Of a stretch of 64,000 nucleotides of DNA, positions 2,461 to 63,737 are shown one piece after another. Position 1 is the first letter of the stretch; the number at the start of each line of letters is the position of its first letter. The notes under the pieces were generated by a model. The model did not search any database, was not told the DNA's origin, and saw only the letters and a program-made list of their open reading frames with translations. Where the stretch lies: the NCBI GenBank assembly GCA_903857255.1, contig CAIODY010000034.1, positions 8,127 through 72,126 on the forward strand, in the 5' to 3' direction. This stretch comes from an uncultured bacterium. Its GTDB lineage: Bacteria > Bacteroidota > Bacteroidia > Chitinophagales > CAIODY01. Position numbers and translations under genes: made by a program.

Positions 2461-2469
2461 TTTTGAATT

Positions 2470-6129: not shown

Positions 6130-6138
6130 ACGAATTGA

Positions 6139-7713: not shown

Positions 7714-7774
7714 AACTCAAATAAGATTTTTTTGTTAGTTAAATGATTTAAGAATATTTTGAGGGCAATTATTA

Positions 7775-8584: not shown

Positions 8585-8631
8585 AATTTTTAGTTGGTTT
8601 TTTTAGTTATGAAATTATTGTTGAAGAAAAA

Positions 8632-9912: not shown

Positions 9913-10121
9913 TATTAATGTTTAGGTTGTTAATTCTCGTCCACCCTTACAATTTGTTATAAGGGAGACAAAAGTAAACAGATAATTCAAATTTCCAAAT
10001 ACGCCGTGTATTGTATTTCAACACACTAAATAAACAACGAATTTAAAACTGAACAACTTTTTCTTTGAGTTTATACTGATAAAGATAAAAAAAGTTTCAG
10101 AAAATTGAAAAAAAAATTTTG

Positions 10122-19200: not shown

Positions 19201-20954
19201 AATCAACAAGAAAAAATTATTACGAAAAATTTATTGAAAAATTAGAAAACAATTTGCCAGTAAAAGATATAGTGAAGTTGAAATTTGCTGATGAAACACA
19301 TCGCTATTTTGAAGTAACAGGAAAATTATCGGAAAACAAAAAATTTTACAAAGGCAATTTCCAAGATGTAACTGAACAACATGAAAAAGATAAGGCTTTG
19401 CATCAAAGCGAAGAGCGATTCAGAATGTTGTTTGAAAACACACCATCTATGTATTTCATCATGGATGAACAAGGCACAATTGTTTCTGTCAATCAGTTCG
19501 GAGCAGATACTTTGGGCTATAAAAAAACTGATTTAATCAATCAATATCATTCCATTTTATTCCATCCATCCGACAAATATTCAGTTGCCAAAAACCTTGA
19601 ACTATTAAAGCTTTCACCAAAAAATTATATGCAGTGGGAAGCTCGGAAAATCAAGAAATCGGGTGAAATAATTTGGGTAAAAGAAACTGCAAGAATTACC
19701 AAAAGTCAAAGAGGCGAAAACATTTATTTAATCGTTTGCGAAGACATCACCAGCGAAGTTCAAAATAGAATTTTGGTAAACAAAAAACAAACTGAATTAA
19801 TTAAAGCAAAAGAAAAAGCCGAAATGGCAGCAACCGAAAAATTGCATTTCACCAGCATCATGAGCCATGAAATAAGAACGCCATTGAATGCGGTAATTGG
19901 CATGAGTAATTTATTGCTAATGGAAAATCCACGTAAAGACCAAATCAGTGAATTAAATACACTGAAATTTTCAGCCGAAAATTTATTAATGCTGGTAAAT
20001 GATGTGTTGGATTATAGCAAAATTGAGGCAGGAAAAGTTGAGTTAGAAAAATCGCCATTCGAAATTCGTCAGTTGATTTATAACATTCGTAGCAGCTATA
20101 AATTCAAAGCCGATTCAAAAGAAATTTTCATCAACACATTCATTGATGAAGAAATCCCAACGATGCTAATTGGCGATGTGATGCGACTTGGGCAGGTGTT
20201 GAACAATTTAATTTCCAATGCAATTAAATTTACCGATAAGGGATTTGTAGAAATTTCGCTTCGCAAAATTCAGTATGCAAAAGATAGTGAAGTAAAAATC
20301 AGATTTGAAGTAATTGACACAGGCATTGGTATCCCGAAAGAAAAACGACAACTTATTTTTGATAGTTTTTCGCAAGCAGCTTTAGATACGTCAAGACGAT
20401 TTGGTGGTACTGGTTTGGGTTTGACCATCACTAAAAAATTGATTCAATTATTTGGCAGCGAAATTTATGTTGAGAGTGAAATTGACAAAGGCTCAACTTT
20501 TTATTTCGATTTAGTTTTTGAAATTGCACCACAACAAAAATTTGAAGTAATTGAAATTGATGGAATAAAAAATGATTTAACTACTTCAAAAAAAGTTTTA
20601 TTGGTGGAAGATAATCACATCAATAAAATCGTAGCCACCAAATTTTTGAATAAATGGAACTTGAATGTAGAAACTGCTATCAACGGAAAAGAGGCGTTGA
20701 AAAAATTAGATGCGAATCATTACGATTTGATTTTGATGGACTTGCACATGCCTGAAATGAGTGGTTTGGAGGCTTGCAGAATAATTCGTAATCATGAGAA
20801 TGTATCGTTTAAAAACATTCCAATCATTGCTTTAACGGCAGCAGCCATTGATAATGAAAAGGAAAAAGTTTTATCAGAAGGCATGAACGATTACATCAGT
20901 AAACCATTCAATCCAGAAGAATTGAAAGAGAAAATTTTCAAACATTTGTCATAG
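16275..20954 (+). CDS. Hybrid sensor histidine kinase/response regulator with multiple tandem PAS modules
   Basis: Seven repeated ~135-aa modules, each ending GT(I/F/L)R(D/N)(I/V)T, then one canonical PAS. H-box SHEIRTPLN (about nt 19866). HATPase motifs DTGIGI and GGTGLGL. C-terminal receiver (LILMDLHMPEMSG). Confidence 0.9.
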   Translation: MKLNAETLSYFNQSTHCICICKQAKNKNLETEIQVVYLNDRFREHFKIAASKPLYVKPQDFFPELLNNDLIHLVKEVFENGQAKEFTIKSEIPKVGELFLDTQLLKFQNYVIIKFKNNKSSKQIEKELLDKDLMLKDAYKLLKMGSMSIDLKTKKISTSLDLNELLELPAEKTYLTYDEYLNLISPDDRSESEANQKIILNGGTVNVERKIITPKGNIRYLESAAKAIFEDGKAVKIIGTIRDITKRKEEEIFIKKTEEKLIEKSKMLGEAHRLLNMTTFKIDMATGIMHSDFDFQEFFEMTKSDEPFTIPTLMSFFDAKDQEEIKANEQRILNGDGNVFIKEKKITTAKGNIKYVEIADRAIFEDGKCVHVVGTFRDITKRKKEELFLMEAERKLIENSRLTDISHAYLKMGTYHIDLATKTIYFSQNLANVLELPISQNQISFLDYLNLIHPDEKTEAAERLKKNLFEHTPYTLERRMITGKGNEIITEITGYPIIEDGNCIKFIGTLRDITQKKKAEQLLIDTQKKLEQSLQQTEHAHKILDMCTFVTDLKTGINHTNYDFSVVYELSEKKPYYTIQDYYKYLSTEDKIAAAENLKELVNEGKPFSSERKIITEKGNIKYIELTGQPIYEDGIVTKFLGTFRNITERKVAELKLQETEKKLSSTLKMLNEAHELLDMGAYTVDLITKKVTSELDINELYDLPEGNTEFTLDDYFKYIQKDEQKESEETFVRLIEHGTPFTKERRITTAKGVDKYVEITGNPVYENGKVTKITGTFRNITARKHQEIHLINTEIKLLEAQSLLQMGTFEVDLINKKTEHSLELCDILEFDEPTMINDTIEFLSYVHPDERQIADEHMKALITGCTDDYKVERKMLTKKGNVKYMEVVSRPIIINGRVMKFGGTFRDVTEKKLQEIWMEENQQRLKEASLLLRNGTFSLDMETKLVTVSDEVLEIVDNKIPKQFSATEFFNYLPESTRKNYYEKFIEKLENNLPVKDIVKLKFADETHRYFEVTGKLSENKKFYKGNFQDVTEQHEKDKALHQSEERFRMLFENTPSMYFIMDEQGTIVSVNQFGADTLGYKKTDLINQYHSILFHPSDKYSVAKNLELLKLSPKNYMQWEARKIKKSGEIIWVKETARITKSQRGENIYLIVCEDITSEVQNRILVNKKQTELIKAKEKAEMAATEKLHFTSIMSHEIRTPLNAVIGMSNLLLMENPRKDQISELNTLKFSAENLLMLVNDVLDYSKIEAGKVELEKSPFEIRQLIYNIRSSYKFKADSKEIFINTFIDEEIPTMLIGDVMRLGQVLNNLISNAIKFTDKGFVEISLRKIQYAKDSEVKIRFEVIDTGIGIPKEKRQLIFDSFSQAALDTSRRFGGTGLGLTITKKLIQLFGSEIYVESEIDKGSTFYFDLVFEIAPQQKFEVIEIDGIKNDLTTSKKVLLVEDNHINKIVATKFLNKWNLNVETAINGKEALKKLDANHYDLILMDLHMPEMSGLEACRIIRNHENVSFKNIPIIALTAAAIDNEKEKVLSEGMNDYISKPFNPEELKEKIFKHLS

Positions 20955-22268: not shown

Positions 22269-25200
22269 TCATTTAAATGCAATTTGCTTGGTATCGGCTT
22301 CGGCTACTTTATTGAAAAAATCTTTGAAAGCATTGTAATCAGCTGGGTTTAAAATATCAGCAGTCGCTTTCATTTCACGGGTGACTACAATTTTTCCGGC
22401 ATGACTATAATCATAATTCAAATGATATTCAGCCACCGAACAAGTTAAATTAACCGAAGCAGGTTTTTCTTGCAAAGCTACACCAGCAGGCAATTCGATA
22501 GTCAATTGCTCCATATTGTAAGGGATTGGATTATATGCCCAAGTCAAAAACGGATAGTTGCGTTTCTCCAGCGAAATAAAATCTAACGATTCTACTGCAT
22601 CGGTCCAAGGCAGGCGAAATATTTTCATGCCAGCCACTTCGTTCACTGCTTTTTTCACGGTGAATGAATATTCCATTTTCACCGTGTCTTGCAATTTTTT
22701 CAAATCGCCCAATTTCAAATAATTCAATTTGGTAGGTGTGCTAAAACTGCCCGATACATTTTGGGTTAAAGTTTTCTCCCTTTCTTCCTGCCCTAAATCA
22801 ACATAATCACTTCGTAATGAAGATGCCATTGCACCCCAACGAGTAATGTTTCGGCTGAAAGTCATATCATTATTTTGAAAACTAATTGTGCCCGTTCTTT
22901 CCACCCGATTATGAATGATAGTTGGCAAATCAATTTTGGTTAAAGTGCTTGCTGCTTCGTCATTATCACGAGGGATAAACAAACTGTTGGCTCTAAAATC
23001 TTCTGATGGCAAATTTGCAAATGCTAATTTTTGGTCAGTGAGTTCGATGTAATATTTTTTATCGCCCAAAGTCAGCAATGAAATGCAATGATTAAAATCC
23101 ATCGAAGGCAAATGCAAATGATTTTCGCCATTGCTTCGAGTATCAACCAACACCAAATTAGCTTTCAAACCAGCTTCTTTACACATGGCTACAAACAGCG
23201 TAGATACATCTTTGCAATCGCCCAATTTAGTGGCTAATGTTCGGGCAGCTTTTTGCGGAATGATAGCGCCGTGCATAAACGATATATTGCTGTAAGCAAT
23301 GTTGGTAGCAATATAATTGTAAATCAGTTTTGCTTTTTCTAAATCAGTGAAGTTGGTTTTATCTTTCAATAAATCAGCTACTACTTCTTTCACTTCAAAA
23401 TCTTGTTTGGCTTTTGATGAAGATAAATCACTGTACCAATTGCTCATAAATTTCCAATCAGGAATGCTTGATAAACTCAAGGTTGGTGCAACATCCACTA
23501 GTTCAGGCATATATGGTTCTGATTTTATCGCCGCTTGATTTTCTAATTGCCAAGTGTACAACTTCATGCCTTCCAGATTTTTTATCGCAGGCTTTAAATC
23601 ACCATTTAGTATTTCGTATTGAAATGTTTTTCCATCAGGCACCAAAATGCTGTAACGGGCTTTGGCCGATGGAATGCCATATTGAAAATGAAACTGGTCC
23701 CAGAAATATTGCGATAGTTTTCCAGTAGCATAGCTTTCAATTTTATACAACAAATGAATCGCATCACCAACCTCTAAATTAGTGAACACCACTGTGCCAT
23801 CGTTTTCTTCGGCTTTCACACGGCTGCCATCAGCTTTTAATAATTCAGCTTTATCCAATACCACACGTTGCGAATAAGGATTGTAGCCAATTTGATATTG
23901 TTTCCAAGTTTCAATGCCCGATTGATTAAAAACTTTCACCAACAATTCTTCTTTTTGTTCAGATGCATTTTCAGGATAAATGATGCGTTGTGTTTCGTTT
24001 AATAAAATAATACTGTTGTCATTCGGGTAATCTTTAGCCGTTGGTGAATTCTTGTACAAGTCATAAGCATCAGCCGTTTCGAAGTTTTCATACAAATCTT
24101 TTTTGCCCTCTAATTTTCGCAAGGCAGCTCTTGAATCGTAATCAGTTGGTGCATAGCTAATCGCTTTTTGATAAGCAGCTTTGGCTTCCTCAGTTTTATT
24201 CATAGCTTCAAAAATCTTTCCTCTATCAGCAAAATAAGCCCCTACATAAGGAGCTAATTCCAACGTTTTATTGTTCCAATTCAATGCTTCTGTATAGTTT
24301 TGCGTTTCATAATACACATCACTCAATTGGCTGTAAAAGCCCACCGCATAAGGGAAATCAGTGGTTCGTTTCCTCATCATATCCAACGCATCAGCTTTGC
24401 TGCCATTTTTAAACAAATGTTCAATCAGCATTTTTTCAGCTTGTTCGCTGTAATACTTTTTGCAAAAATCTTTTACAATTTTAATTGCCTTGTTTTCATC
24501 TTTCGATTTATTCAATTCAATGTTGTAAGCCAAATTCATCAGCTCTTCATTTTCAGGATGTTCAGCATACATTTTCTTACCAAATTCAATCAATTCAGGA
24601 ATTTGTTTTTTATTCGCAAACAAGCCCAGTTGATAGGTTTCCACTAAATAATCATCATGGTAAATGGTTTTAATTTTATCCATCAACTTAGCCGTTTCAT
24701 CATAATCTTCCCGATTATTGGCTTCGCTAATTTTCAATTGCAAAGCTTCTAACGATTCGGCATCGGTGCGTTTTATCTTTTCTTGTTCTTTAGTTAAATC
24801 AGTTTGGTTTTTATCACGAGCATAAGCTTCAATCATTCTATCGCTGATGTAAGTATTGTTAGGTGCCAATGTTTGTGGATGCTTCAGCACTTTTCGGGCA
24901 TCGTAAATTTTATCATTTCGCATCAACACATCAGCATACAGCAATAAATTGGTTAAATCATCTGGCTTGTTTTTTAATTCTTTTTCAAAAAAATCTTCGG
25001 CAAATAATGGCTCTGCAACAATCTTGTAATCAGCAGATTTGTTGTATTCTTGTGTTTTGTTAGAAGAAGTAATGCCGCTGATTGGATTACCTTTTTCATC
25101 AGTGAGGCGGATTAAAAAATTAGCAGCATTCGTTTCGCTTTCGCCAATCTGCACCAAGAAACGATTGTAGCCTTTGTTCAATTTTATTTTCTGATTGTAA

Positions 25201-26021
25201 ATATCTAAATCAGCATTTCGTTCGGTTGCTTCGCTTAAAATATTGCAATCATTTACCCATATTTTCATTGAGCCGCTGCATCCAGCACGTAAAGTAACTT
25301 CCTGCTCTGTTGCGCTATACACATAGGTTTGAGCAAACATGATGGAGTTATCAATACTAAAATAATAATCGAAATAAAACCATCGGTCATCGCGTTGAAA
25401 CGGCGGCGCAAACCATTTTACAGCAGCACCCACTTTATCTTTAAATTCTTCATCGGTTTTATTTTTCAATGCACCCCATTCTTTATTAAAACCACTTCCG
25501 CTGGTATTATCAAATGTGCCTAACACTTGCCAGTTATCAATACTTCCAATTTTATCATACTCATTTTTGCGTTCTTTAAATTTGTTGATGCTTTCAAAAT
25601 GATGCCCCAAAGCCACATGTGCCATGGCTTTCAGCGTTCCATGTGCTTTGGTATCATTGATAATTTGATTCAAAAATTTAACTTTTGGTTCGCTCAAATT
25701 TGCCCGTGAGCCATACAAAATCGGCATACTCCAATACGCATATAAATACGGGTAAGGATTGTTGGATGAATTATAAAACTGTGTGAAAGTTTGAAATGCG
25801 CTATCGTTTTTATTGCAAGTCCATTGCACCATCATCAAGCCCAAATAGGCTTTGTCTTTATTCGGTTCATTATCCTCGATTGCTTTTGCAAAAAGCATTT
25901 TGGCTTCATTGCGTTGGTTGTTATTAAAGGCTTGCCAAGCTTTTTCATAATTACCAGCGAATGTTTTGATGGAGATGAAAGCCGCAATGGCAGTAAGTTG
26001 CAGTGGTTTGCTAAAATTCAT
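22269..26021 (-). CDS. Large secreted TPR + DUF3857-like + transglutaminase-like domain protein
   Basis: Signal peptide and TPR-like repeats. Transglutaminase-core Cys context GDCKDVSTLFVAMCKEAGL. Confidence 0.7.
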   Translation of the reverse strand: MNFSKPLQLTAIAAFISIKTFAGNYEKAWQAFNNNQRNEAKMLFAKAIEDNEPNKDKAYLGLMMVQWTCNKNDSAFQTFTQFYNSSNNPYPYLYAYWSMPILYGSRANLSEPKVKFLNQIINDTKAHGTLKAMAHVALGHHFESINKFKERKNEYDKIGSIDNWQVLGTFDNTSGSGFNKEWGALKNKTDEEFKDKVGAAVKWFAPPFQRDDRWFYFDYYFSIDNSIMFAQTYVYSATEQEVTLRAGCSGSMKIWVNDCNILSEATERNADLDIYNQKIKLNKGYNRFLVQIGESETNAANFLIRLTDEKGNPISGITSSNKTQEYNKSADYKIVAEPLFAEDFFEKELKNKPDDLTNLLLYADVLMRNDKIYDARKVLKHPQTLAPNNTYISDRMIEAYARDKNQTDLTKEQEKIKRTDAESLEALQLKISEANNREDYDETAKLMDKIKTIYHDDYLVETYQLGLFANKKQIPELIEFGKKMYAEHPENEELMNLAYNIELNKSKDENKAIKIVKDFCKKYYSEQAEKMLIEHLFKNGSKADALDMMRKRTTDFPYAVGFYSQLSDVYYETQNYTEALNWNNKTLELAPYVGAYFADRGKIFEAMNKTEEAKAAYQKAISYAPTDYDSRAALRKLEGKKDLYENFETADAYDLYKNSPTAKDYPNDNSIILLNETQRIIYPENASEQKEELLVKVFNQSGIETWKQYQIGYNPYSQRVVLDKAELLKADGSRVKAEENDGTVVFTNLEVGDAIHLLYKIESYATGKLSQYFWDQFHFQYGIPSAKARYSILVPDGKTFQYEILNGDLKPAIKNLEGMKLYTWQLENQAAIKSEPYMPELVDVAPTLSLSSIPDWKFMSNWYSDLSSSKAKQDFEVKEVVADLLKDKTNFTDLEKAKLIYNYIATNIAYSNISFMHGAIIPQKAARTLATKLGDCKDVSTLFVAMCKEAGLKANLVLVDTRSNGENHLHLPSMDFNHCISLLTLGDKKYYIELTDQKLAFANLPSEDFRANSLFIPRDNDEAASTLTKIDLPTIIHNRVERTGTISFQNNDMTFSRNITRWGAMASSLRSDYVDLGQEEREKTLTQNVSGSFSTPTKLNYLKLGDLKKLQDTVKMEYSFTVKKAVNEVAGMKIFRLPWTDAVESLDFISLEKRNYPFLTWAYNPIPYNMEQLTIELPAGVALQEKPASVNLTCSVAEYHLNYDYSHAGKIVVTREMKATADILNPADYNAFKDFFNKVAEADTKQIAFK

Positions 26022-26212: not shown

Positions 26213-27682
26213 TTATTTCAACTTCATTTCCACTCTTCTGTTTTGTGCTTTATTTTGCAAAGTAGTGTTAGCTACTAAAGGCATTGTATCGCCAAACCCT
26301 TTAGCAGTCAATCGTGCAGCATCAATTCCTTTTTTCACTAAATATGCTTTCACAGCATTGGCACGTTTATCACTTAATTCTAAATTCTTTTTTGCATCGC
26401 CTACATTATCGGTATGTCCGTTAATATCTAATTTGTAATGGGCATTTTCTTTCAACACAATTATAGCCTTATCTAACGAAGCATAAGAAGAACTCAACAA
26501 CATTTCGCTACCAGTAGCGAAATTGATATTGTGAATTAATACATCCAGCTTTTGTTGGTCTTCTACTTTTACCGTTTGCATAGGACAGCCATTATTTTCA
26601 ATAGTGCCTTTTACATCCGGACATTTATCATCTTTATCAGCCACACCATCGCCATCTTTATCAGGGCAGCCATTGGTAGCAGCAGTTCCCCTTTCATTTG
26701 GGCAAGCATCTTTAGTATCTGGAATGCCATCACCATCTGCATCTGCAGGGCAACCACTGTTGGCAGCTACACCAGCCACAGTAGGGCATTTATCCATGTA
26801 ATCAGGCACGCCATCACCATCTGTATCAGGGCAACCATTGGTAGCAATTGTTCCTTTTTCATTCGGGCAATAATCTTTGTCATCTGATATTCCATCGCCA
26901 TCCGTATCAGGGCAACCATGCAATTCGATAGAACCTTTTACGGTTGGACATTTATCAAAATAATCAGGTACACCATCACCGTCAGAATCAGCAGGGCAAC
27001 CTTGTTCATTCACTTTCACACCCATTGCTGTATTCGGACAATTGTCTTTCCAATCAGGCACGCCATCACCATCGCTATCTCGTTTGGTATGAATTGGAAA
27101 ATTGAAAACAAAACCCAAAGTGTGTTGAGCAAATCTATCCCCTTTGCCATTCATCAAGCCATCAATTTCATCATTTTTAGTAATGCCATAAACTGATTGC
27201 AATTGAAAATGAATATCCTTCGCTAAGCGAATTTTTATACCATAACCCAATTCAAAAGCCAATGCAGATGTACGCCCGATGGTATATTCTGAATTTGCAA
27301 ACATCGCTGCCGAGCCGATTAAAAAATAAGGTGCAATACGAGCATCTTCTTTCAAAAATTTTCCATTGTTCAATTTCAAATGCAAACGAACACCATAATC
27401 AAAAAAATTACCATCGAAATGAACCGAATCATTTTTGTGAAATGCCCAATTAGAATAATTTACAAACGCAAAACCATCTAAATATGGATTGATATAATAA
27501 CCAACAGAGAGACCATAGGTTGATTTTTCAGTGTTGAATTGATAAAATAAATTATCACCCATATCGCCGCGATAGCCCGAGAAACCTGCATGTAAGCCTA
27601 ATGCCCATTTATCAGTTTTGTCTTGGCTAAATGCCAATGATGCGCAACAAATCACGACAATAAAGAGTAGAATTTTCTTCAT
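26213..27682 (-). CDS. OmpA-family outer membrane protein with six thrombospondin type-3 (calcium-binding) repeats
   Basis: N-terminal beta-barrel region. Six D(S/T/A/K)DGDG(V/I)(P/S/A)D...CP repeats. C-terminal OmpA domain (NRRVEMKL). Confidence 0.9.
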   Translation of the reverse strand: MKKILLFIVVICCASLAFSQDKTDKWALGLHAGFSGYRGDMGDNLFYQFNTEKSTYGLSVGYYINPYLDGFAFVNYSNWAFHKNDSVHFDGNFFDYGVRLHLKLNNGKFLKEDARIAPYFLIGSAAMFANSEYTIGRTSALAFELGYGIKIRLAKDIHFQLQSVYGITKNDEIDGLMNGKGDRFAQHTLGFVFNFPIHTKRDSDGDGVPDWKDNCPNTAMGVKVNEQGCPADSDGDGVPDYFDKCPTVKGSIELHGCPDTDGDGISDDKDYCPNEKGTIATNGCPDTDGDGVPDYMDKCPTVAGVAANSGCPADADGDGIPDTKDACPNERGTAATNGCPDKDGDGVADKDDKCPDVKGTIENNGCPMQTVKVEDQQKLDVLIHNINFATGSEMLLSSSYASLDKAIIVLKENAHYKLDINGHTDNVGDAKKNLELSDKRANAVKAYLVKKGIDAARLTAKGFGDTMPLVANTTLQNKAQNRRVEMKLK

Positions 27683-55518: not shown

Positions 55519-55618
55519 AAAAATCTAACGGCGAAATTAAACATCTTACCGAACTGTCGGTTATCATCTTCATTTAAACTTCAATTCTCTATATTTGCCG
55601 CCACAAAAAAAATCAGCA

Positions 55619-56776
55619 ATGATAAATTTCGATAACACTGAAATTGCTTTTAAAATAAAAAGTAAAAGTGCTTTGCAAAAAGCCAATTTTTTATTTGGCA
55701 TGATGAATAATCAATCGTTGGTAAAGATAGGAACATCAATGGCGCAAATGGCTCTCAACCTGCATTTGCCAGTAAAAACGTTGATTAAAAAAACAATCTT
55801 CGAACAATTTTGCGGTGGTGAAAGTTTGGAAGAATCGAAAGTGATTGTTGATGAATTGAAGAAATATCAAGTGCAATCTATTTTAGATTATGCCATTGAA
55901 GCGAAAAGTGGAGAAGCCGAATTTGATAACACTTTGAAAGAATTGATGCATGTAGTTGATTATGCAGCATCGGCCAATGTTCCTTTTGTGAGTGTGAAAG
56001 TTACAGGCTTGGCAAGATTTGAATTATTAGAAAAACTGCAAGCCAAACAACCATTAACAACAGATGAACAAGAAGAATTTCGTCGAGTAAAAAATAGAAT
56101 GCTCACACTTTGCCAAAGTGCATTCGATAAAAATATTGCAGTGTTGGTGGATGCTGAAGAAACCTGGATTCAAGACCCAGTGGATGCTTTGGTAAATGCC
56201 ATGATGCTTCAATTTAATAAAACAAAAGCAGTAGTATATAACACGGCACAACTGTATCGTCATGATAGATTGGAGTTTTTGAAAAAATGTATTGCACTTT
56301 CAAAAGAAAATAATTTTATTTTAGGGATGAAATTAGTTCGTGGTGCATACATGGAAAAAGAACGCAAACGTGCAAAGGAAATGGGCTATCCCTCTCCTAT
56401 TCAACCCAATAAAGAAGCGACTGATAAAGATTTCGATTTAGCCGTAGCTGCTTGTTTAGATGCTATTCAGCATGTTGCTTTTTTCTGTGCATCGCACAAT
56501 GAATTATCGCATCAAAAGGCTGTTGAGATAATGCTGCAAAAAAATATTCAGCACCATCATTTAAACATTTATTTTTCGCAATTGTATGGCATGAGCGACC
56601 ACATCACTTTCAACATGGCACAAGGTGGATACAATGCTTGCAAATATTTACCGTTTGGTCCTGTTGGCGATGTGATGCCTTATTTAATTCGCCGAGCACA
56701 AGAGAATACAGCTATTGCAGGGCAAATGAGCCGTGAATTGAAATTGATTAAAAAAGAAATTGAAAGAAGAAAATAA
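55619..56776 (+). CDS. Proline dehydrogenase
   Basis: Monofunctional PRODH pattern (FDNTEIAF..., LVRGAYMEKER, YLIRRAQEN). The start is taken at the first ATG. Confidence 0.85.
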   Translation: MINFDNTEIAFKIKSKSALQKANFLFGMMNNQSLVKIGTSMAQMALNLHLPVKTLIKKTIFEQFCGGESLEESKVIVDELKKYQVQSILDYAIEAKSGEAEFDNTLKELMHVVDYAASANVPFVSVKVTGLARFELLEKLQAKQPLTTDEQEEFRRVKNRMLTLCQSAFDKNIAVLVDAEETWIQDPVDALVNAMMLQFNKTKAVVYNTAQLYRHDRLEFLKKCIALSKENNFILGMKLVRGAYMEKERKRAKEMGYPSPIQPNKEATDKDFDLAVAACLDAIQHVAFFCASHNELSHQKAVEIMLQKNIQHHHLNIYFSQLYGMSDHITFNMAQGGYNACKYLPFGPVGDVMPYLIRRAQENTAIAGQMSRELKLIKKEIERRK

Positions 56777-56783
56777 CTAAAAT

Positions 56784-57758
56784 ATGCAAATCATCCGTCG
56801 CCCACGTATTCTTCGTCAATCGCCAGCTATCAGAGCCATGGTGAGTGAAACCATTTTATCGCCCAACGATTTTATTGTTCCACTTTTTATCAACGAAGGA
56901 AAAAATTATAAAGAAGAAATTTCTTCGATGCCTGGTTATTACCGCATGAGTTTAGACAACATCGAAAAAGAAGTGAAAGAGTTGTGGCGTATGGGTTTGA
57001 AGTGTGTTTTATTATTCATCAAATGCGATGATAAATTAAAAGATAACAAAGGCACTGAAGCATTGAACCCTGATGGATTAATGCAACGCAGCATTAAAGC
57101 CATCAAAAATGTTTGCCCTGAAATGTGTGTGATGACTGATGTTGCACTCGACCCTTTTTCCATTTATGGGCATGATGGCATAGTTGAAAATAATGAAATT
57201 GTAAATGACCCAACTGTAGAAGTATTGGCACAAATGAGTGTATCGCATGCCGCTGCTGGTGCTGATTTCGTAGCACCAAGCGATATGATGGATGGAAGAA
57301 TTTTAGCCATTCGTGAGGCATTGGAAGAAAATAATTTTACCAAAACAGGCATCATGGCTTACAGCGCAAAATATGCTTCTTGTTTTTATGGTCCTTTCCG
57401 TGATGCGTTAGATTCTGCACCTGGTTTCGGTGATAAAAAGTCTTACCAAATGAATCCTGCTAACCGAATTGAAGCAGTGAAAGAAGTGATGATGGATATT
57501 GACGAAGGAGCTGATATTGTCATGGTGAAGCCGGCTTTGAGCTACTTAGATATTATCAGAGAAGTGAAAAATATTTCTGATGTGCCTGTGAGTGCTTATC
57601 ATGTAAGTGGTGAATATAGCATGATTAAAGCCGCCGCCGCCCGTGGTTGGCTGAATGAAGACCAAACCATTTTAGAAACAACACTCTCAATCAAACGTGC
57701 AGGCGCTGATTTAATCGCCAGTTATTTTGCAAAAGATGTGGTGAGATTGTTGGGGTAA
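56784..57758 (+). CDS. hemB: Porphobilinogen synthase
   Basis: RRPRILRQSPAIRAMV; active-site region VMVKPAL. Confidence 0.95.
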   Translation: MQIIRRPRILRQSPAIRAMVSETILSPNDFIVPLFINEGKNYKEEISSMPGYYRMSLDNIEKEVKELWRMGLKCVLLFIKCDDKLKDNKGTEALNPDGLMQRSIKAIKNVCPEMCVMTDVALDPFSIYGHDGIVENNEIVNDPTVEVLAQMSVSHAAAGADFVAPSDMMDGRILAIREALEENNFTKTGIMAYSAKYASCFYGPFRDALDSAPGFGDKKSYQMNPANRIEAVKEVMMDIDEGADIVMVKPALSYLDIIREVKNISDVPVSAYHVSGEYSMIKAAAARGWLNEDQTILETTLSIKRAGADLIASYFAKDVVRLLG

Positions 57759-58449: not shown

Positions 58450-58675
58450 GCTTTTTTTTTATGTTTACAAAGTTCGTTGAAAGCTTTTATTAACCCAATG
58501 TTTTTCTCATTAACTTAATGTTACTAAAAGCGATGAATTGAGCAATGACATTTATTTTATTAAAAACAACAGATAAGTAAAGGCAATAGTCTCCAACAAA
58601 TAATTGAGAAAGAATAAATAGGTTTCTGCTTTTGAAAAACTGCGAAAGATTTTACTGAAGCAGTGCAAAAAAAAA

Positions 58676-58705
58676 TTTGTTGTTTCAAACTTTTTTCTAT
58701 TTTTG
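58676..58705 (+). promoter_or_regulatory. Probable Bacteroidota sigma-A promoter (-33 TTTG, 18-nt spacer, -7 TATTTTTG)
   Basis: tttgttgtttcaaacttttttctatttttg. The -7 box at 58698-58705 lies 26 nt before the ATG. A similar segment recurs at 60226-60256. Confidence 0.45.
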
Positions 58706-58731
58706 TTAAAACATTTAATTACTATTATTTT

Positions 58732-59628
58732 ATGAAGAAAAACGCTTTACTTTTTTTCGCTGCTTTGGCAGTAGGTTATGTTACTTTAACTGCTTATCAT
58801 GCTGGCGCAGGCAATAGTGGCTGGGATTGCACTGGTGCTGAAACAGGCTTGAGCAACCCAACTGGTTGCAAGGGTAGCGGTTGTCATGCATCAAGCACTA
58901 CCGCTAACATTGGTGTTACTTTAGAATTAGATTCGGCTGGTGTTGCCACTACTCGTTATGTAGCAGGTATGAATTACACCGTAAAAATTACTGGCACAAA
59001 CAATGGAAGTACTTCATTGCCAAAATTTGGTTTTCAAATTGGTTGTATTACAGGTTCTACTGCACAAGCTACACCAACTAATGCAGGTACATGGGCAACT
59101 ACAGGCTTACCTGCTTCTACACGTTATACAGGGGCTTCAGCTAATAATTTTGTAGTCAATGTGGTGGAGCAAAGTGCAGCTATTGCAGCCACTTCGGGTA
59201 GTGGTGGTAGCGGAACTACTTATACCAACTCATTTACTTGGACTGCGCCTGTTGCAGGCACAGGCACTATCTCTTTTTGGGGGGTGTTAAATGCAGTGAA
59301 TGGCAATGGCAATCAAGATTCGGGTGATTTGTGGAATACTACTTCCTTAGTAATTTCTGAAAAAACTGCATCAGGAATTAATGAGGTGAATGCTTTAAAT
59401 TTAAACATCTATCCTAACCCTACGCATCAAACTTTAATGGTAAATTGTGCAACACCAGTGCAAACTATGGAAGTGTTTGACATGATGGGTCGCCATGTGA
59501 ATGTGGCTTATACTGCCAATGAAAATCATTATGCATTAAATGTTAGCGAATTAAATGCAGGTATTTATTTCGTTAAAGCATTAGATAGTAAAGGTGCTAT
59601 TGCCTTAGAAAAGTTTATTAAAGAGTAA
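58732..59628 (+). CDS. T9SS-exported protein, paralog 1: N-terminal C-X4-CH motif, reeler/DOMON-like beta-sandwich pattern, type-A sorting CTD
   Basis: Signal peptide MKKNALLFFAALAV. GCKGSGCH (58867-58887). FGFQIG and FTWTAPVAGTGTISFWGV pattern. C-terminal IYPNP...LNAGIYFVK... (T9SS CTD). Confidence 0.7.
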   Translation: MKKNALLFFAALAVGYVTLTAYHAGAGNSGWDCTGAETGLSNPTGCKGSGCHASSTTANIGVTLELDSAGVATTRYVAGMNYTVKITGTNNGSTSLPKFGFQIGCITGSTAQATPTNAGTWATTGLPASTRYTGASANNFVVNVVEQSAAIAATSGSGGSGTTYTNSFTWTAPVAGTGTISFWGVLNAVNGNGNQDSGDLWNTTSLVISEKTASGINEVNALNLNIYPNPTHQTLMVNCATPVQTMEVFDMMGRHVNVAYTANENHYALNVSELNAGIYFVKALDSKGAIALEKFIKE

Positions 59629-59658
59629 TTGTAAATAGGTTTTGTTGTTTTTAGAAAT

Positions 59659-59694
59659 GAAACTCACTTTTGAAATATAGAGTGAGTTTTTTTT
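59659..59694 (+). terminator. Rho-independent terminator
   Basis: gaaactcact (59659-59668) pairs with agtgagtttt (59681-59690). A T-run follows. Confidence 0.7.
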
Positions 59695-59796
59695 GCCTTA
59701 TAAATGAAGGATGCAAAAAAAACATTACAGGCATTAAACCTTGCTTTTAATTTGTAGTCTTCTTAAGGCAAATGTTTAAACAACGACTAAAATAAA

Positions 59797-60207
59797 ATGG
59801 ACAGAAAACAATTTTTAAAATCAACTCTTTTATTAGGTGGATTAGGCTTAGCAGGTTCGGCTTTATTAATTGAAAGCTGTAAAAAATCAAGTAATACTGC
59901 TGCTGTTAATTTCACTTTAGATTTATCGCAATCAGTCAATTCAGCATTAAATTCAGTTGGGGGTTCTGTTGCATCCAATAATGTAGTAGTGATTTGCACT
60001 GCCACAAATACTTGGGTAGCCTTATCGCAATTGTGTACGCATCAAGGTTGTTCGTTAAGTTATTCCAAATCGGCTAAGCAATTAATTTGCCCATGTCATG
60101 GCGGCACTTTTGATACAAGTGGAAATGTAGTTTCGGGCCCACCGCCTTCTGCCTTAACTAAATATACAGTTACTAAAAGCGGAACAGTATTAACTATTAC
60201 AGGCTAA
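59797..60207 (+). CDS. Small exported Rieske [2Fe-2S] lipoprotein
   Basis: Rieske ligand motifs CTHQGC and CPCHG. N-terminus DRKQFLKSTLLLGGLGLAGSALLIESC (Tat-like or lipoprotein signal). Confidence 0.85.
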   Translation: MDRKQFLKSTLLLGGLGLAGSALLIESCKKSSNTAAVNFTLDLSQSVNSALNSVGGSVASNNVVVICTATNTWVALSQLCTHQGCSLSYSKSAKQLICPCHGGTFDTSGNVVSGPPPSALTKYTVTKSGTVLTITG

Positions 60208-60356
60208 AATTTAATCGACAAATATTTTGTTGTTTCAACATTTCTTGTTTTTTTTGTACTTACTGAAACGAGTGATTTTTGTCACTTTTAAAATTGATTA
60301 CTACATCTATTTTTGCAAAAATTATCATTTACTAAAAACAACATCAAAACATCAAA

Positions 60357-61166
60357 ATGAAGAAAATTACACTCTTAACTACTGTAGCTATAATTGCTGC
60401 TTTGTTTATCAATGTAAACAACAATCGTGTTAACTCAAGAAGCAGCGGCGCACCTGCTGGTAATGCAGGCAATCCATCAGCAGGCAATTCTAATTGTTAC
60501 ACTAGTTGCCACAATGAAACAGTTGCCAATCTTTCATCAACACAAGGTGGTGTAACACTTTCACTTCGTGGTGTAGCTGCAACAACTGGCTATTATCCTG
60601 ATTCTACTTATACGGTTACGTCATCAATTTCTGTATCAGCAAGTGGGCACGGGTTTCAAACTACAGCCGAATCTTCTTCAGGTTTTGCTGGAACATTCAC
60701 AGCAGGTTCGGGCAATAAAGTTACAGGCACTAATTATGTAACACATACTTCTCCAATTAGCTCAACACCAGCATCATGGTCTTACACTTGGAAAGCACCA
60801 AGCGCAGGTAAAGGAACGGTTACATTTTATTCAGCCTTTATGACTTACAATGTTCATACATATTTATCTACTTCTGCTTTTACTGAATTAACACCAGTGA
60901 ATACAACAGGCATTAAAAATTTGGATGAATTTGCATTCTCAATTTATCCTAATCCAACAGTTCATAAATTCAATATTTCAGTACCTGAATTGAATAGCTC
61001 ATCAACCATTGAAATTTATGACATCGCAGGAAAATTAGTTCAGCATTTAAACTTTGAAGCAGCTAACAATATCGAAGCAAACATTAGCAATTTGAATGCA
61101 GGAATTTATTTTGTGAAATTAACAGCAGGTAACAAAACAGGCATTTCTAAATTAATAAAACAATAA
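60357..61166 (+). CDS. T9SS-exported protein, paralog 2: SSGAP...C-X3-CH motif, reeler/DOMON-like pattern, type-A sorting CTD
   Basis: Signal peptide. SSGAPAGNAGNP...CYTSCH (60495-60512). GHGFQTTA and WSYTWKAPSAGKGTVTFYSAF. C-terminal IYPNP...LNAGIYFVKL. Confidence 0.7.
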   Translation: MKKITLLTTVAIIAALFINVNNNRVNSRSSGAPAGNAGNPSAGNSNCYTSCHNETVANLSSTQGGVTLSLRGVAATTGYYPDSTYTVTSSISVSASGHGFQTTAESSSGFAGTFTAGSGNKVTGTNYVTHTSPISSTPASWSYTWKAPSAGKGTVTFYSAFMTYNVHTYLSTSAFTELTPVNTTGIKNLDEFAFSIYPNPTVHKFNISVPELNSSSTIEIYDIAGKLVQHLNFEAANNIEANISNLNAGIYFVKLTAGNKTGISKLIKQ

Positions 61167-61178
61167 CTAAATCTTATA

Positions 61179-61213
61179 ACAGCAGTTGCATAACTTGCAT
61201 CTGCTGTTTTTTT
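61179..61213 (+). terminator. Rho-independent terminator
   Basis: aacagcag (61179-61186) pairs with ctgctgtt (61201-61208). A T-run follows. Confidence 0.65.
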
Positions 61214-61229
61214 AAAACACCCAATCAAC

Positions 61230-61619
61230 ATGAAGAAAAACTTACTCTTTGTTATGGTAATAGTTGTTGCAGCCTTATTAATGAATAATGCTTGCAAAAA
61301 AGATAAAGCACAAGCAATTGTTGCAACTGCTAATGTACCAGATACTTGCTCTGCAATTACTTTTACTAAAACGATTATGCCCATCATTACAACCAGTTGT
61401 GCAACAGGCTCTAAATGCCATGGTGCTGGCTCATCGCATAATGTGTATTCTAATTACGCAAGCATTAGCAGTGAAGTAACTAATGGTTTTTTAACTGTAA
61501 GTAGCAATCAAATATTGGGTAAAGGCATTGATATGACTGGTCCGTTAAATGGCAATTTAACGCAATCGCAAATCAATCAATTTATTTGTTGGCTAAATAG
61601 TGGCGCACCAAATAATTAG
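61230..61619 (+). CDS. Small lipoprotein with a cytochrome-c-like (PSCyt/haem-binding-domain-like) pattern but non-canonical C-X5-CH
   Basis: Lipobox LLMNNAC. FTKTIMPIITTSCATGSKCHG (Cys...Cys-His at 61398-61421). C-terminal QFICWLNSGAPNN. Confidence 0.55.
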   Translation: MKKNLLFVMVIVVAALLMNNACKKDKAQAIVATANVPDTCSAITFTKTIMPIITTSCATGSKCHGAGSSHNVYSNYASISSEVTNGFLTVSSNQILGKGIDMTGPLNGNLTQSQINQFICWLNSGAPNN

Positions 61620-61669
61620 TTGGAACACTAATTGCATCTTGTTGTTTTATAATCAAAATCAAATCAATC

Positions 61670-62227
61670 ATGAAAAATTATTTTTTAGTTCTCGTTAGTT
61701 TTTTGTTTGCTTTTTCAACTGTAAAAGCACAAGACATTTACATTGCACCAACTGCCTCTATCGGTTTTTTCTCTGCCACATCTATGGAAAATATTGATGC
61801 AAAAACAAAAGAAGCTTCGGCAGCTATTAATGTGAAAACCAAAAAGATTTTCTTCAAAGTAAAAAACACTTCCTTCATTTTTAAAAGTAGTTTGATGCAA
61901 GAGCATTTTAACGAAAACTATATGGAAAGTGAAAAATTTCCATTCACTCAATTCAATGGTGAAATTGTAGATGCACCTAATCAAGATTTCACAAAAGATG
62001 GTGCTTACGAAGTAACTGTAAAAGGCAAAATGACTTTGCATGGCGTTGAAAAAGAATACACTACCAAAGGTTCTATTGTGGTGAAAGATGGTAAAATAAG
62101 AGCGCAAGCTAAATTCAATATCAAAATGGAAGACCACAAAATAAAAATACCAAGTGTGGTTGGTGCAAATATTGCTGAACAAGTGGAAGTTAATGTTGAT
62201 GCCACTTTTGAGCCACAAAAAAAATAA
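61670..62227 (+). CDS. YceI-family (polyisoprenoid/lipid-binding) periplasmic protein
   Basis: Signal peptide. EHFNENYMESEKFPFTQFNG and GKMTLHGVEKEYT match the YceI-like pattern. Confidence 0.75.
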   Translation: MKNYFLVLVSFLFAFSTVKAQDIYIAPTASIGFFSATSMENIDAKTKEASAAINVKTKKIFFKVKNTSFIFKSSLMQEHFNENYMESEKFPFTQFNGEIVDAPNQDFTKDGAYEVTVKGKMTLHGVEKEYTTKGSIVVKDGKIRAQAKFNIKMEDHKIKIPSVVGANIAEQVEVNVDATFEPQKK

Positions 62228-62239
62228 TCAATTCGTTTT

Positions 62240-62276
62240 AAACCCTGCAAGATTTTATTTTGCAGGGTTTCTTTTT
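62240..62276 (+). terminator. Rho-independent terminator
   Basis: aaaccctgcaa (62240-62250) pairs with ttgcagggttt (62260-62270). cttttt follows. Confidence 0.75.
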
Positions 62277-62308
62277 CAAATTTCCAACTTAAACAAATCA
62301 ATACCAAC

Positions 62309-63256
62309 ATGAAATTTTTGTACCTCTTTTTATTGGCTGCATTGGCAACCACTTCATTAAAAGCACAAGATGATTTAAGCAATTTATTTAAAGACGATAA
62401 AAAATCACACGACCCTGTTACAGCCACTTTTAAAACTACGAGATTAAACATGGGACATTCCATCGAAGTAGTAGGTAAACATCAATTAGATGTTAGAATT
62501 TCACACGTTTTTGGTGAAGTGCATAATACATCAAGCACGGCTGATTTACATTCCTTATATGGTTTAGAAAGTATTTCAAATGTGCGTATTGCTTTTGAAT
62601 ATGGTGTTACAGATAAATTAACAGCAGGCTTTGGTCGCAGCAAGGGTTTTGGTGCAGCTAAAGAATTATACGATGGCTTTTTAAAATACAAATTATTGCG
62701 CCAAACCATTGACAACAAAATGCCTGTAACTGTAACATTGGTGGGCACTGCACAAGTGAGTGGAATGATTGCATCTACCGACCCTACCAGTGAAACCAGC
62801 TATGGTAATTTTTCTCAACGTTGGAGTTATTCAACACAAGCATTAATCGCTCGTAAATTCAGCGAAAAATTATCATTGCAAATAATGCCAACTTGGATTC
62901 ATCGCAATTATGTGGTGGCAGCAAATACTTTAACAAATTTACCTGCTGATGAAAATGATATGTTTGCCATTGGTGTTGGCGGCAGATATAAATTTAGTAA
63001 ACGTAGTGCCATCATTATTGATTGGTTTATGCCTTTTAGCAATTACCGAACACAAGAACACAAACAAGGATTGTATTACAATCCACTTGGAATAGGCTAT
63101 GAGATTGAAACTGGCGGACATGTGTTTCATTTAAGCTTAGTAAACACAGGTGGATTTTCCGAACAAGATTTTATTTCCAACAGCCCAACATCATGGACTA
63201 AATGGGGATTCCGTTTAGGATTTAATATCAGCCGTTGGTTTACTATCGGGCACTAA
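62309..63256 (+). CDS. Outer-membrane beta-barrel protein (DUF5777-like)
   Basis: Signal peptide. TFKTTRLNMGHSIEVVGKHQLDVRISHVFG resembles the DUF5777 N-terminal pattern as I recall it. Alternating beta-strand pattern. Confidence 0.6.
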   Translation: MKFLYLFLLAALATTSLKAQDDLSNLFKDDKKSHDPVTATFKTTRLNMGHSIEVVGKHQLDVRISHVFGEVHNTSSTADLHSLYGLESISNVRIAFEYGVTDKLTAGFGRSKGFGAAKELYDGFLKYKLLRQTIDNKMPVTVTLVGTAQVSGMIASTDPTSETSYGNFSQRWSYSTQALIARKFSEKLSLQIMPTWIHRNYVVAANTLTNLPADENDMFAIGVGGRYKFSKRSAIIIDWFMPFSNYRTQEHKQGLYYNPLGIGYEIETGGHVFHLSLVNTGGFSEQDFISNSPTSWTKWGFRLGFNISRWFTIGH

Positions 63257-63283
63257 TTTTTGTTTCAAAAAAAATAATTTTAA

Positions 63284-63312
63284 AAGGCAATCATTTATGA
63301 TTGCCTTTTTTA
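63284..63312. terminator. Bidirectional rho-independent terminator
   Basis: aaggcaatca (63284-63293) pairs with tgattgcctt (63298-63307). It is flanked by an A-run and a T-run, between convergent genes. Confidence 0.75.
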
Positions 63313-63324
63313 TTTCCATCAATT

Positions 63325-63681
63325 TTACGAATGATAAACTCGTGAAGCGATAATTTTTCCATTTTCAATTACTAATATTTCACCTACTCGTAAATCAGGT
63401 TCATTGGGCGTTTGACGAATATACTCCATAAAAATTTGTTCGTCATCAGCAGTCAATTTAATCACTTCATAATGCAAATTGGGTAAGCGATTAAATGCAT
63501 CAGCCCACCAATTTCGTAAAGCAGCTTTTCCTTTTATCCATCCATTAGTTTCAGGTTGATGAAGTTTTAATTTGGGGCTGTAATGCTCGGCATTATCATC
63601 ATACAAACTCAATAACTTTTTTAAATCGTGTTGATTAAAAGCTTCGAACCATTGATTGGCTATATGTTTTAAGGAATTCAT
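63325..63681 (-). CDS. NTF2/SnoaL-like fold protein
   Basis: 118 aa from the ATG at 63679-63681. WFEAFNQHDLKKLLSLYDDNAEHYSP is typical of SnoaL-like/NTF2 proteins. Confidence 0.65.
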   Translation of the reverse strand: MNSLKHIANQWFEAFNQHDLKKLLSLYDDNAEHYSPKLKLHQPETNGWIKGKAALRNWWADAFNRLPNLHYEVIKLTADDEQIFMEYIRQTPNEPDLRVGEILVIENGKIIASRVYHS

Positions 63682-63737
63682 GATAAAATAAAAAAACAAA
63701 GATAGTTTTCAATTGGCAATAGAAATAAAAAAGCAAT

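Follow-up and report, generated by a model that had tools for sequence, protein, structure and literature searches.

A conserved cell-envelope gene module of Bacteroidota with Reeler-like type IX secretion cargo and a cytochrome-c-like lipoprotein: a candidate redox system

The DNA analysed here, a window of 64,000 nucleotides from an uncultured bacterium of the Bacteroidota (Chitinophagales, CAIODY01; contig CAIODY010000034.1, positions 8,127 to 72,126 of the forward strand), holds at window positions 58450-63312 a cluster of six genes, termed G1 to G6 in the following. They encode two Reeler-like proteins that are cargo of the type IX secretion system (T9SS; G1 and G3), a Rieske lipoprotein (G2), a cytochrome-c-like lipoprotein (G4), a YceI family protein (G5) and a β-barrel of the DUF5777 family (G6). 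The cluster is one case of a conserved module of Bacteroidota, whose cytochrome/YceI/DUF5777 core is also present in metagenome-assembled genomes of Marinimicrobia. Judging from its sequences, we give a probability of about one half to the reading that the module is a conserved and previously undescribed redox module of the cell envelope, most likely carrying electrons (or metal or haem) between the periplasm and the cell surface. The parts of the module are uncharacterised and are not homologous to those of known extracytoplasmic electron-transfer systems, and no mention of DUF5777, of bacterial Reeler haem proteins, of T9SS-exported cytochromes or of such a module was found in the literature searched.

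The argument for a functional unit begins with gene order. A search of species genomes seeded with G6 returned 12 loci, from Chitinophagales, other Bacteroidota, Flavobacteriales, Sphingobacterium and Marinimicrobia, in 9 of which a YceI gene adjoins the DUF5777 gene, with a G4-type lipoprotein gene upstream in most (the G4-type members missed by phmmer were read by eye in L010 and, with canonical CXXCH motifs, in L011 and L013; L-numbers denote retrieved loci and P-numbers individual relative proteins). The order Reeler, Rieske, cytochrome c, YceI, DUF5777 is found in L017, and the same order without the Rieske gene in L018. L019 and L020 are reversed and read DUF5777, YceI, a small membrane protein, cytochrome c, Reeler; the protein inserted there between YceI and the cytochrome-c lipoprotein (136 aa; L019 6229-6639 and L020 2401-2811) is apparently multi-pass and has no Pfam match. 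Among metagenome loci of the G1 family, 23 were called informative, being flanked by 4 kb or more on either side, and 7 of these (30%) carry G4-type and DUF5777 genes within 10 kb, with YceI in addition in 5 and Rieske in 3. In L031, L034, L041, L046, L053, L056 and L076 the genes follow one another as Rieske, Reeler, cytochrome c, YceI, DUF5777, whereas L043 matches the window itself (Reeler, Rieske, Reeler, cytochrome c, YceI, DUF5777), and further orders occur in L021 and L052. Adjacency is kept through five gene orders (L031/L056, L017, L019, L021 and L052), and since the linkage outlasts such rearrangement, selection for clustering is indicated. The chance expectation is estimated at about 1% or less per locus, assuming one to two DUF5777 genes per genome and a 20-kb neighbourhood, so that the observed 30% lies far beyond chance; chance adjacency was rejected on these data.

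When 33 DUF5777 loci were pooled, as a non-independent sample with some duplicates, the neighbours included a G4 family member in 27, a YceI gene in 25, a Reeler gene in 23 and a Rieske gene in 11. Orthologues of G2 lie inside the module in L005, L017, L031, L034, L041, L043, L046, L053, L056, L065 and L076; YceI is missing from the module in L016, L040 and L052. The conserved core consists of a G4-type cytochrome and DUF5777 together with a β-sandwich protein bearing C-Xn-CH; YceI is usually present in addition, and the Rieske protein is accessory. G6 is the anchor gene of this module.

Both Reeler-like proteins carry the mark of T9SS export. G1 and G3 match Por_Secre_tail/TIGR04183 at 49-66 bits, against Pfam and NCBIfam cut-offs of 23-27, and for the type-A C-terminal sorting domain (CTD; TIGR04183/PF18962) the scores are 49.4 bits for G1 and 66.2 bits for G3 against a cut-off of 23. 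G1 is Sec-exported and consists of an N-terminal domain (N-domain; aa 22-225) and the CTD (aa 226-298), and G3 is divided similarly (N-domain aa ~28-195, CTD aa 196-269); the two are paralogues with 31% identity (E = 4e-19) spanning N-domain and CTD. More than 285 relatives of the G1 N-domain were found, all annotated merely as T9SS cargo and all from Bacteroidota or Chitinophagales. An AlphaFold (AF2) model of this domain, built on 50 relatives, reached a mean confidence (pLDDT) of 87.8, and its seven best Foldseek matches in the PDB are chains of the human F-spondin reeler domain (2zou, 2zot and 3coo; E = 1.3e-5 to 5e-5, TM score to target 0.5-0.6). Consistent with the model, an N-domain-only profile built from 20 diverse members (G1-type, G3-type and others) has the Spondin-1 (F-spondin) reeler domain as its sole significant match in the PDB (E = 2.7e-4), in an alignment that pairs the elements Y-PG-x-x-Y-x-V, GF, aGTF and W-x-AP-x-G-x-G. 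The Pfam Reeler family (PF02014) weakly matches 8 of the 50 relatives (best E = 0.0033), and P0278, a relative of G3, has a weak precomputed match. Since G1 and G3 themselves lie below the Pfam threshold, they are treated as remote Reeler homologues and not called members; profile and model both point to a Reeler-type homology of their N-domains. A cytochrome-f-like reading of G1, with an N-terminal Tyr and a haem motif on a β-sandwich, found no supporting fold or profile match.

Just ahead of the predicted sandwich lies a C-Xn-CH motif, which reads CKGSGCH in G1 (C46-X4-C51-H52, nt 58867-58887), where all three residues are invariant in the alignment of homologues, and CYTSCH in G3 (C47-X3-C51-H52, nt 60495-60512). 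The motif is kept in all 203 complete Reeler-type sequences, with n = 1 in 14, 2 in 15, 3 in 16, 4 in 57, 5 in 84 and 6 in 14, and a canonical CXXCH is found in module-linked Reeler relatives (CTSCH in L018, CTACH in L019/P0278). G3 is the paralogue most closely tied to the module: it has 8 relatives, and every one of them with context examined adjoins G4-like, YceI and DUF5777 genes, even where the order is rearranged. The G1-type family has expanded beyond the module, as tandem pairs of G1-type Reeler/T9SS genes without a module close by show (L003 8001-10007; also L048, L061-L063 and L092-L093). Giant T9SS proteins with a Reeler head were seen in addition (L083 9995-13594, L085 10001-13615, L099 9899-17203, L086 6789-8825); those of L083 and L085 have about 1200 aa and that of L099 has 2434 aa, with a CSCH-bearing Reeler head followed by dozens of immunoglobulin (Ig)-like repeats and a CTD. 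The giant of L099 has cytochrome-c/YceI/DUF5777 modules on both sides. Such proteins fit a head that acts away from the cell.

G4 possesses a signal peptide, a lipobox cysteine (Cys22) and a single divergent cytochrome-c domain of class-I type, with the pattern F...I.PI....C....CH and the motif CATGSKCH (C57-X5-C63-H64, nt 61398-61421); Met102 is a candidate distal ligand, and C40 and C120 likely form a disulfide. A word-indexed search returned G4 alone, and an exhaustive search was required to find its relatives, of which there are 865 representative sequences, occurring either with one domain (about 120 aa) or in tandem forms of 2-4 domains. Across this family C57, C63, H64 and W121 are invariant and the lipobox Cys22, C40, P51 and a Met-Pro nearly so, with C40 and C120 co-occurring in the pattern of a disulfide pair. 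Every sequence has a C-Xn-CH motif (by motif count, n = 2 in 73, 4 in 159, 5 in 40 and 6 in 8), canonical CXXCH being found in the module-linked relatives of L011, L013, L017 and L019 and absent from G4 itself, and all 78 sequences aligned retain the distal-site Met, whatever the spacing of the cysteines. Cytochrome_CBB3 matches 23 of 79 single-domain relatives, with others matching PccH, Haem_bd, PSCyt1 or Cytochrom_C, and relatives with several domains score above the Pfam cut-offs (PSCyt1 88.9 bits, Cytochrome_CBB3 90.3 bits, PccH 60 bits). The best PDB match of the family profile is PccH of Geobacter (4rlr, E = 0.0017), followed by the haem domain of the hydrazine synthase alpha subunit and cytochrome c6. 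By these family-level matches G4 is assigned to the cytochrome-c superfamily, as a divergent member of PSCyt1/PccH/cbb3 type, and haem binding is likely retained, because the conserved Cys, Cys, His and Met are the haem-c set.

The lipidated cysteine of G4 is followed by K-K-D-K (C-K-K-D-K; family consensus C-x-K-D-x), which partially matches the surface-lipoprotein export signal (LES) of Bacteroidota, K-(D/E)2 or Q-A-(D/E)2 (PMC5080379). Tandem G4-type domains, in 2-4 copies, occur in lipoproteins of 220-510 aa that resemble multihaem chains (P0122, P0129, P0134, P0141 and P0243), and one relative is joined to thrombospondin type-3 repeats (P0213), another to a SprB repeat (P0187). P0178 (987 aa), with 15 matched stretches of the form 'LLPLCHGSGSY...', was left out of all counts; its appearance is that of a DNA repeat in translation or an assembly artefact and not of a real cytochrome.

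The remaining three proteins fall into defined families. G2 matches Rieske (PF00355) at 56.9 bits against a cut-off of 20.3, and has a Tat-like start, MDRKQFL (RK or RR in relatives), a lipobox cysteine (Cys28) and the two boxes C80-T-H82-Q-G-C85 and C98-P-C100-H101, in which C80, H82, C98 and H101 are the cluster ligands and C85 and C100 the disulfide pair. This motif set assigns G2 to the Rieske class of bc1, b6f and arsenite oxidase, with the extra disulfide pair. Its match to the NCBIfam bc1/b6f equivalogs covers the cluster-binding part alone, at 52-54 bits against cut-offs of 97-250, and a cytochrome b gene was found neither in the cluster nor in any of the related loci examined, which sets G2 apart from the bc1/b6f proteins proper. 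G5, a periplasmic protein, belongs to the lipocalin-like YceI family (PF04264, 52.9 bits against 23.7), which binds polyisoprenoids and quinones, and G6 matches DUF5777 (PF19089), and DUF5777 alone, over the full profile (276.6 bits, E = 2e-82, positions 1-247 of 247); phmmer searches of the PDB gave no usable solved relative of G5 and no solved relative of G6. That DUF5777 might be a PorP/SprF-like T9SS anchor was considered and rejected, as no similarity to PorP was found.

An original prediction for this stretch of DNA had named all of these families, and its assignments hold: the two paralogous secreted proteins with type-A sorting domains, the exported Rieske lipoprotein with the ligand loops CTHQGC...CPCHG, the cytochrome-c-like lipoprotein and the YceI and DUF5777 proteins are each borne out by the scores and ligands given above. 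The N-domain motifs it quoted (C-Xn-CH, FGFQ or GHGFQ, and W(T/K)AP..G.GT) are present and conserved in the homologue alignments. Its description of the N-domains as reeler- or DOMON-type stands in its reeler half, by Foldseek and profile, and fails for G1 and G3 in its DOMON half. The N-domains might also have turned out to belong to an ordinary adhesin or Ig family with unconserved Cys and His, which it had named as a refutation; the homology found is to Reeler, and the Cys, Cys and His are invariant.

A DOMON-like protein does occur in variant loci of the module. L040 (15252-20678) and L088 (5013-10439) have, in order, genes for an EB_dh lipoprotein, a G4-type cytochrome, DUF5777, an NrfC-like and an NrfD-like protein. 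The first of these is a lipoprotein of 494 aa that has an EB_dh domain (PF09459, E = 2e-17) and contains CYGTCH, the DUF5777 match has E = 1e-66, and the last two are a 4Fe-4S protein with a Tat signal and a membrane protein, respectively; in L016 (4-1711) an EB_dh-like C-terminus (E = 7e-13) precedes a cytochrome-c/DUF5777 pair. We take EB_dh to be a haem-binding, DOMON-related family. By the gene order of these loci, the slot of the Reeler protein can be held by a DOMON-type β-sandwich with C-X3-CH, and the variant operon looks like an uncharacterised quinol-linked redox chain of the outer membrane. The presence of NrfC- and NrfD-like genes strengthens the reading of the module as a redox system.

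In the scheme proposed here, G1, G3 and G4 would carry haem c, attached covalently at their C-Xn-CH motifs. G2 and G4 would serve as one-electron carriers, either periplasmic or anchored in the outer membrane, and would exchange electrons with the quinone pool via a menaquinone (or another polyisoprenoid) bound by YceI, a link that in the variant loci the NrfCD-type quinol dehydrogenase would take over. The DUF5777 barrel would be the outer-membrane site, at or through which electrons might be handed over to surface Reeler proteins carrying haem, and these in turn may react with an extracellular partner, such as Fe, Mn or Cu species, reactive oxygen species or an oxidoreductase at the cell surface. 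The scheme departs from the observed gene content, homologies, export signals and clustering, and from the invariant Cys, Cys and His (with Met in G4); the haem attachment, the quinone as ligand of YceI, the contacts between the proteins, the direction of flow and the substrate are what we infer from them. A more specific proposal, that extracellular electron transfer is widespread in Bacteroidota and runs through a new class of Reeler-fold haem-c proteins, T9SS-exported and in some cases long-stalked, which would be fed across the outer membrane by the monohaem lipoprotein, a quinone-loaded YceI and DUF5777 in place of a multihaem porin-cytochrome wire, is speculative and more probably wrong than right.

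Several observations weigh against the redox reading. The carriers would be monohaem, so that there is no obvious haem wire, and the DUF5777 barrel is small (~270 aa), which makes the sheathing of a cytochrome in the manner of MtrB unlikely. The giant Reeler heads could not be wired to the cell via their stalks, which argues against a simple fixed wire. The spacing of the cysteines is variable and mostly non-canonical even among close relatives, with n = 5 as the mode of the Reeler type and X4, X3 and X5 in the window's own G1, G3 and G4, and would suit a disulfide loop or a metal site equally; nor does the Reeler family have an invariant residue for a sixth ligand, one position varying between His, Gln and Asn. 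G1 and G3 have no Pfam Reeler match of their own at E ≤ 0.1-1, G4 by itself is under all Pfam cytochrome cut-offs, and Foldseek found nothing significant with the model of G4 (pLDDT 80.6), which, being apo and retaining the signal helix, is a poor query. With respect to context, 16 of the 23 informative G1-type loci (70%) lack the module, their G1-type genes standing alone or in tandem, and a G4-family member sampled at random is solitary. The six-gene unit of the original prediction stands as a cluster, with synteny that is conserved in other genomes and outlasts rearrangement, as it had proposed to check; what does not stand is its extent, the conserved unit being the smaller core, with Rieske in a third of the pooled loci and most informative G1-type loci outside it. 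With the same amendment, its reading as a redox or metal module is partly supported, having come through all in silico attempts at refutation.

An alternative that agrees with all of the synteny data, and which the original prediction had itself offered as metal acquisition, is the capture and import of metal or haem. Here the C-Xn-CH sites would reversibly bind Cu(I), Fe or haem, the Reeler heads would do the capturing, DUF5777 would be the passage, YceI and G4 the carriers, and the Rieske protein would reduce Fe(III) or Cu(II) cargo for release. Variable cysteine spacing is commoner in metal sites or disulfide loops than in haem c, the Ig-stalked giants, with that of L099 between two modules, suit 'fishing' over a wire, the copper chaperone YcnI is among the weaker fold matches (rank 32), and a YceI-like gene of Riemerella is induced under iron limitation (PMC5429918). 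Yet two invariant cysteines with an adjoining CH are the signature of haem c, the set conserved in G4, with its distal Met, corresponds exactly to that of haem c, the relatives of G4 are bona fide cytochrome families, the NrfCD-like variant points to electrons from quinol, and the loci lack a recurrent TonB-dependent receptor, ABC importer or known chaperone. We regard capture as unlikely. It seems to us distinctly unlikely that the system instead handles isoprenoids or counters oxidative stress. In such a system a polyisoprenoid, either menaquinone or a pigment, would be moved or held by YceI and DUF5777 at the outer membrane, with the cytochrome and the Rieske protein keeping it reduced or detoxifying peroxides and the Reeler proteins only loosely associated. 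The YceI-DUF5777 pair is the one most widely spread, including Marinimicrobia and Flavobacteriales (L011-L013), many G1-type genes are solitary, YceI genes of Zobellia are induced upon surface attachment and discussed within the oxidative-stress response, and the YceI family is defined by its binding of polyisoprenoid or ubiquinone-8 (UQ8; PMC8981238 citing Vincent et al.). The G4-DUF5777 pairs that dispense with YceI (the three loci named above) show, however, that YceI is not an indispensable partner, the G3-type Reeler genes are module-linked in all contexts examined, and no recurrent peroxidase, lipid-transfer or Lpt/Mla-type genes are present in the loci.

According to the last alternative, which has a slim chance of being right, the Reeler-fold proteins would simply be T9SS-exported adhesins or would bind glycans, with C-Xn-C as a structural disulfide, and would just happen to lie beside an unrelated small operon of cytochrome, YceI and barrel genes. 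The F-spondin reeler domain is a heparin-binding module, the giants resemble adhesins of the SprB type in their sequence of N-terminal head, Ig-like repeats and CTD, a terminator-like hairpin sets G1 apart from the other genes of the cluster, and the module is absent near those 16 informative loci. A disulfide would nevertheless leave unexplained the His that follows the second Cys in 203 of 203 sequences, the linkage in excess of chance, kept over the five gene orders, argues for a function, and in the variant loci the Reeler slot is taken by an EB_dh/DOMON-type protein that again has C-X3-CH.

Among described systems, the nearest functional precedent for the redox reading, by analogy, would be Cbp2D/Cbp2E of Cellvibrio japonicus. 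In Cbp2D a YceI-like domain that binds UQ8 is joined to c-type cytochrome domains, of which X183 reduces the copper of a lytic polysaccharide monooxygenase (LPMO) (PMC8981238, PMC12542752). The likeness consists in an extracytoplasmic YceI-type unit (X158) that goes together with monohaem c-type units (X183/X132), and in the extracellular delivery of electrons that has been proposed for them. The Cbp2 units, however, are fused, type-II-secreted and equipped with CBM2, whereas here they are separate genes without a carbohydrate-binding module, and the window cluster adds the DUF5777 barrel, the Reeler-fold T9SS cargo and the Rieske protein. The profile search of the PDB detected no homology of G4 to X183, and no LPMO was seen in the window.

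The porin-cytochrome conduits MtrCAB, PioAB/MtoAB and Pcc of Geobacter share with the module the gene logic of a barrel with periplasmic and surface cytochromes, and the proposed passage of electrons across the outer membrane. Conduits of the Mtr/Pcc type thread cytochromes of 8-12 haems through a large porin of 20-28 strands. The module differs by its monohaem cytochrome-like parts, its barrel of about 270 aa, its surface delivery by T9SS and the lack of any homologous part, and with one C-Xn-CH each in G1, G3 and G4 it falls outside this multihaem, large-porin class. In FRRS1/SDR2, which combines Reeler, DOMON and cytochrome b561, the Reeler fold is likewise associated with extracytoplasmic haem or redox modules, and the exchange of Reeler for an EB_dh/DOMON-type protein in the variant loci echoes this Reeler-DOMON pairing; the window cluster, in contrast, has no cytochrome b561, carries the C-Xn-CH in the bacterial Reeler domain itself and keeps its parts on separate genes. 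The Reeler domains of F-spondin and reelin (2zot, 2zou, 3coo; PF02014) are the top structural and the sole sequence-profile match, but identity is 14-20%, the animal domains lack the C-Xn-CH, and the bacterial proteins end in a T9SS CTD. The closest solved and curated relatives of G4, namely Geobacter PccH, planctomycete PSCyt1 and the C-terminal haem domain of hydrazine synthase alpha, have in common with it T-Y-x-x-D-I-x-P-I-x-x-x-x-C...CH, a later Met and the ending W-(I/L)-x-x-G-A, G4 differing as a lipoprotein with C-X5-CH in place of CXXCH. As in yceJ-yceI of E. coli, YceI is genetically paired with a cytochrome, although no b561 is present in the window cluster, and G2 has the CTHxGC...CPCHG loops of the bc1/b6f Rieske proteins but is free-standing and optional in the module.

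The layout of the cluster (Table 1) agrees with the original prediction of six co-directional genes beside a divergent orphan OmpR-type regulator in its open reading frames (ORFs), coordinates and gene calls: the six lie on the + strand at 58732-63256, and public gene calls for metagenome contigs from this organism show the same six products. The ATG start of G1 is backed by the homologue alignment and by these gene calls. Given the hairpin 3' of G1, this gene may be a separate transcription unit, and the hairpin ahead of G6 is possibly an attenuator or partial terminator. A sigma-70 promoter scan, a kind of scan unsuited to Bacteroidota promoters, gave 23 sites against 23.2 in shuffled sequence. 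The porP-gldKLMN genes, said to be in the same window, are there, about 47 kb from the cluster and outside the cluster proper; they are the export machinery needed by G1 and G3.

Table 1. Positions of the cluster genes and associated features in the window
Feature	Position	Strand	Basis or remark
T9SS core: gldN, gldM, gldL, gldK, porP	5167-11111	-	all five above NCBIfam cut-offs
Response regulator, 224 aa	57775-58449	-	OmpR/PhoB family; Response_reg and Trans_reg_C matches
G1, 298 aa, Reeler-fold T9SS cargo	58732-59628	+	CTD match; fold and profile matches
Terminator-like hairpin, 12-bp stem and T-run	59659-59690	+	30 nt past G1 stop
G2, 136 aa, Rieske 2Fe-2S lipoprotein	59797-60207	+	Rieske Pfam match
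G3, 269 aa, second Reeler-fold T9SS cargo	60357-61166	+	CTD match; paralogue of G1
G4, 129 aa, divergent cytochrome-c-domain lipoprotein	61230-61619	+	family homology; motif
G5, 185 aa, YceI family, Sec signal peptide	61670-62227	+	YceI Pfam match
Strong hairpin, 14-bp stem and T-run, between G5 and G6	62240-62270	+	
G6, 315 aa, DUF5777 outer-membrane β-barrel, Sec signal peptide	62309-63256	+	Pfam match
Bidirectional terminator-like hairpin at cluster end	63282-63309		common to convergent SnoaL-like gene

The response regulator, whose top NCBIfam match is PhoB with a score under the cut-off, has no adjoining histidine kinase and is a candidate local regulator by its position. Divergent OmpR-type regulators also stand beside the modules of L021 (1391-2062, -) and L052 (3220-3900, -), the latter with a kinase alongside (1827-3098, -), and are orthologues with 53% identity to each other; the window's regulator, in the same divergent position, is not orthologous to them (28-30% identity) and was rejected as a conserved part of the module. 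The sole kinase among the scanned ORFs of the window is a hybrid sensor histidine kinase of 1559 aa with many PAS domains (16275-20954, +), 37 kb from the orphan regulator. In 6-8 soil and freshwater loci, genes for an extracytoplasmic function (ECF) sigma factor and a protein of ~470 aa (468 aa) with a C-terminal OMP_b-brl_2 domain lie directly upstream of the module and SecA directly downstream (for example L001 342-2337, L034 5150-5728 and L056 7908-9314); this arrangement may reflect a regulatory pair or just lineage-specific synteny.

The regulator has as its neighbours hemB (δ-aminolevulinate dehydratase, haem synthesis) and a proline dehydrogenase gene, which lie just beyond it (55595-57758, +). 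The closeness of these two genes to a cluster of putative haem proteins is probably coincidental, as the arrangement is not kept in the closest relative, L005. On the other side, a SnoaL-like gene (ketosteroid-isomerase fold; 63325-63699, -) converges on the cluster and is followed, in public gene calls, by a radical-SAM (S-adenosylmethionine) gene, neither of them conserved with the module. Elsewhere in the window, a gene for an OmpA-family protein that has thrombospondin type-3 repeats besides its N-terminal barrel (26213-27682, -) adjoins one for a DUF3857/transglutaminase-like/TPR protein of 1250 aa (22269-26021, -), and a 4-hydroxyphenylpyruvate dioxygenase gene (11219-12355, -) adjoins porP of the T9SS operon.

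Should the module be redox-active, a role would be assigned to DUF5777, to the G4-type family of 865 clusters, to more than 285 Reeler-like T9SS proteins and to the YceI proteins of Bacteroidota. The proteins are small (129-298 aa) and have clear motifs, and tractable relatives such as Flavobacterium johnsoniae suit their study. To our knowledge, extracellular electron transfer is not a trait for which Bacteroidota are known, and the module, if the proposal is true, would represent a new route for electrons or metals to or from the surface in a phylum that is abundant in soil, freshwater and marine habitats, with cofactor-bearing proteins joining the cargo repertoire of the T9SS. It would likewise be the first evidence of the Reeler fold, familiar from reelin, from F-spondin and from the ferric-chelate reductase FRRS1, as a haem or redox domain, and would give the animal Reeler domains, such as those of FRRS1/SDR2 and the insect 'defense proteins', their first mechanistic tie to haem or redox chemistry.

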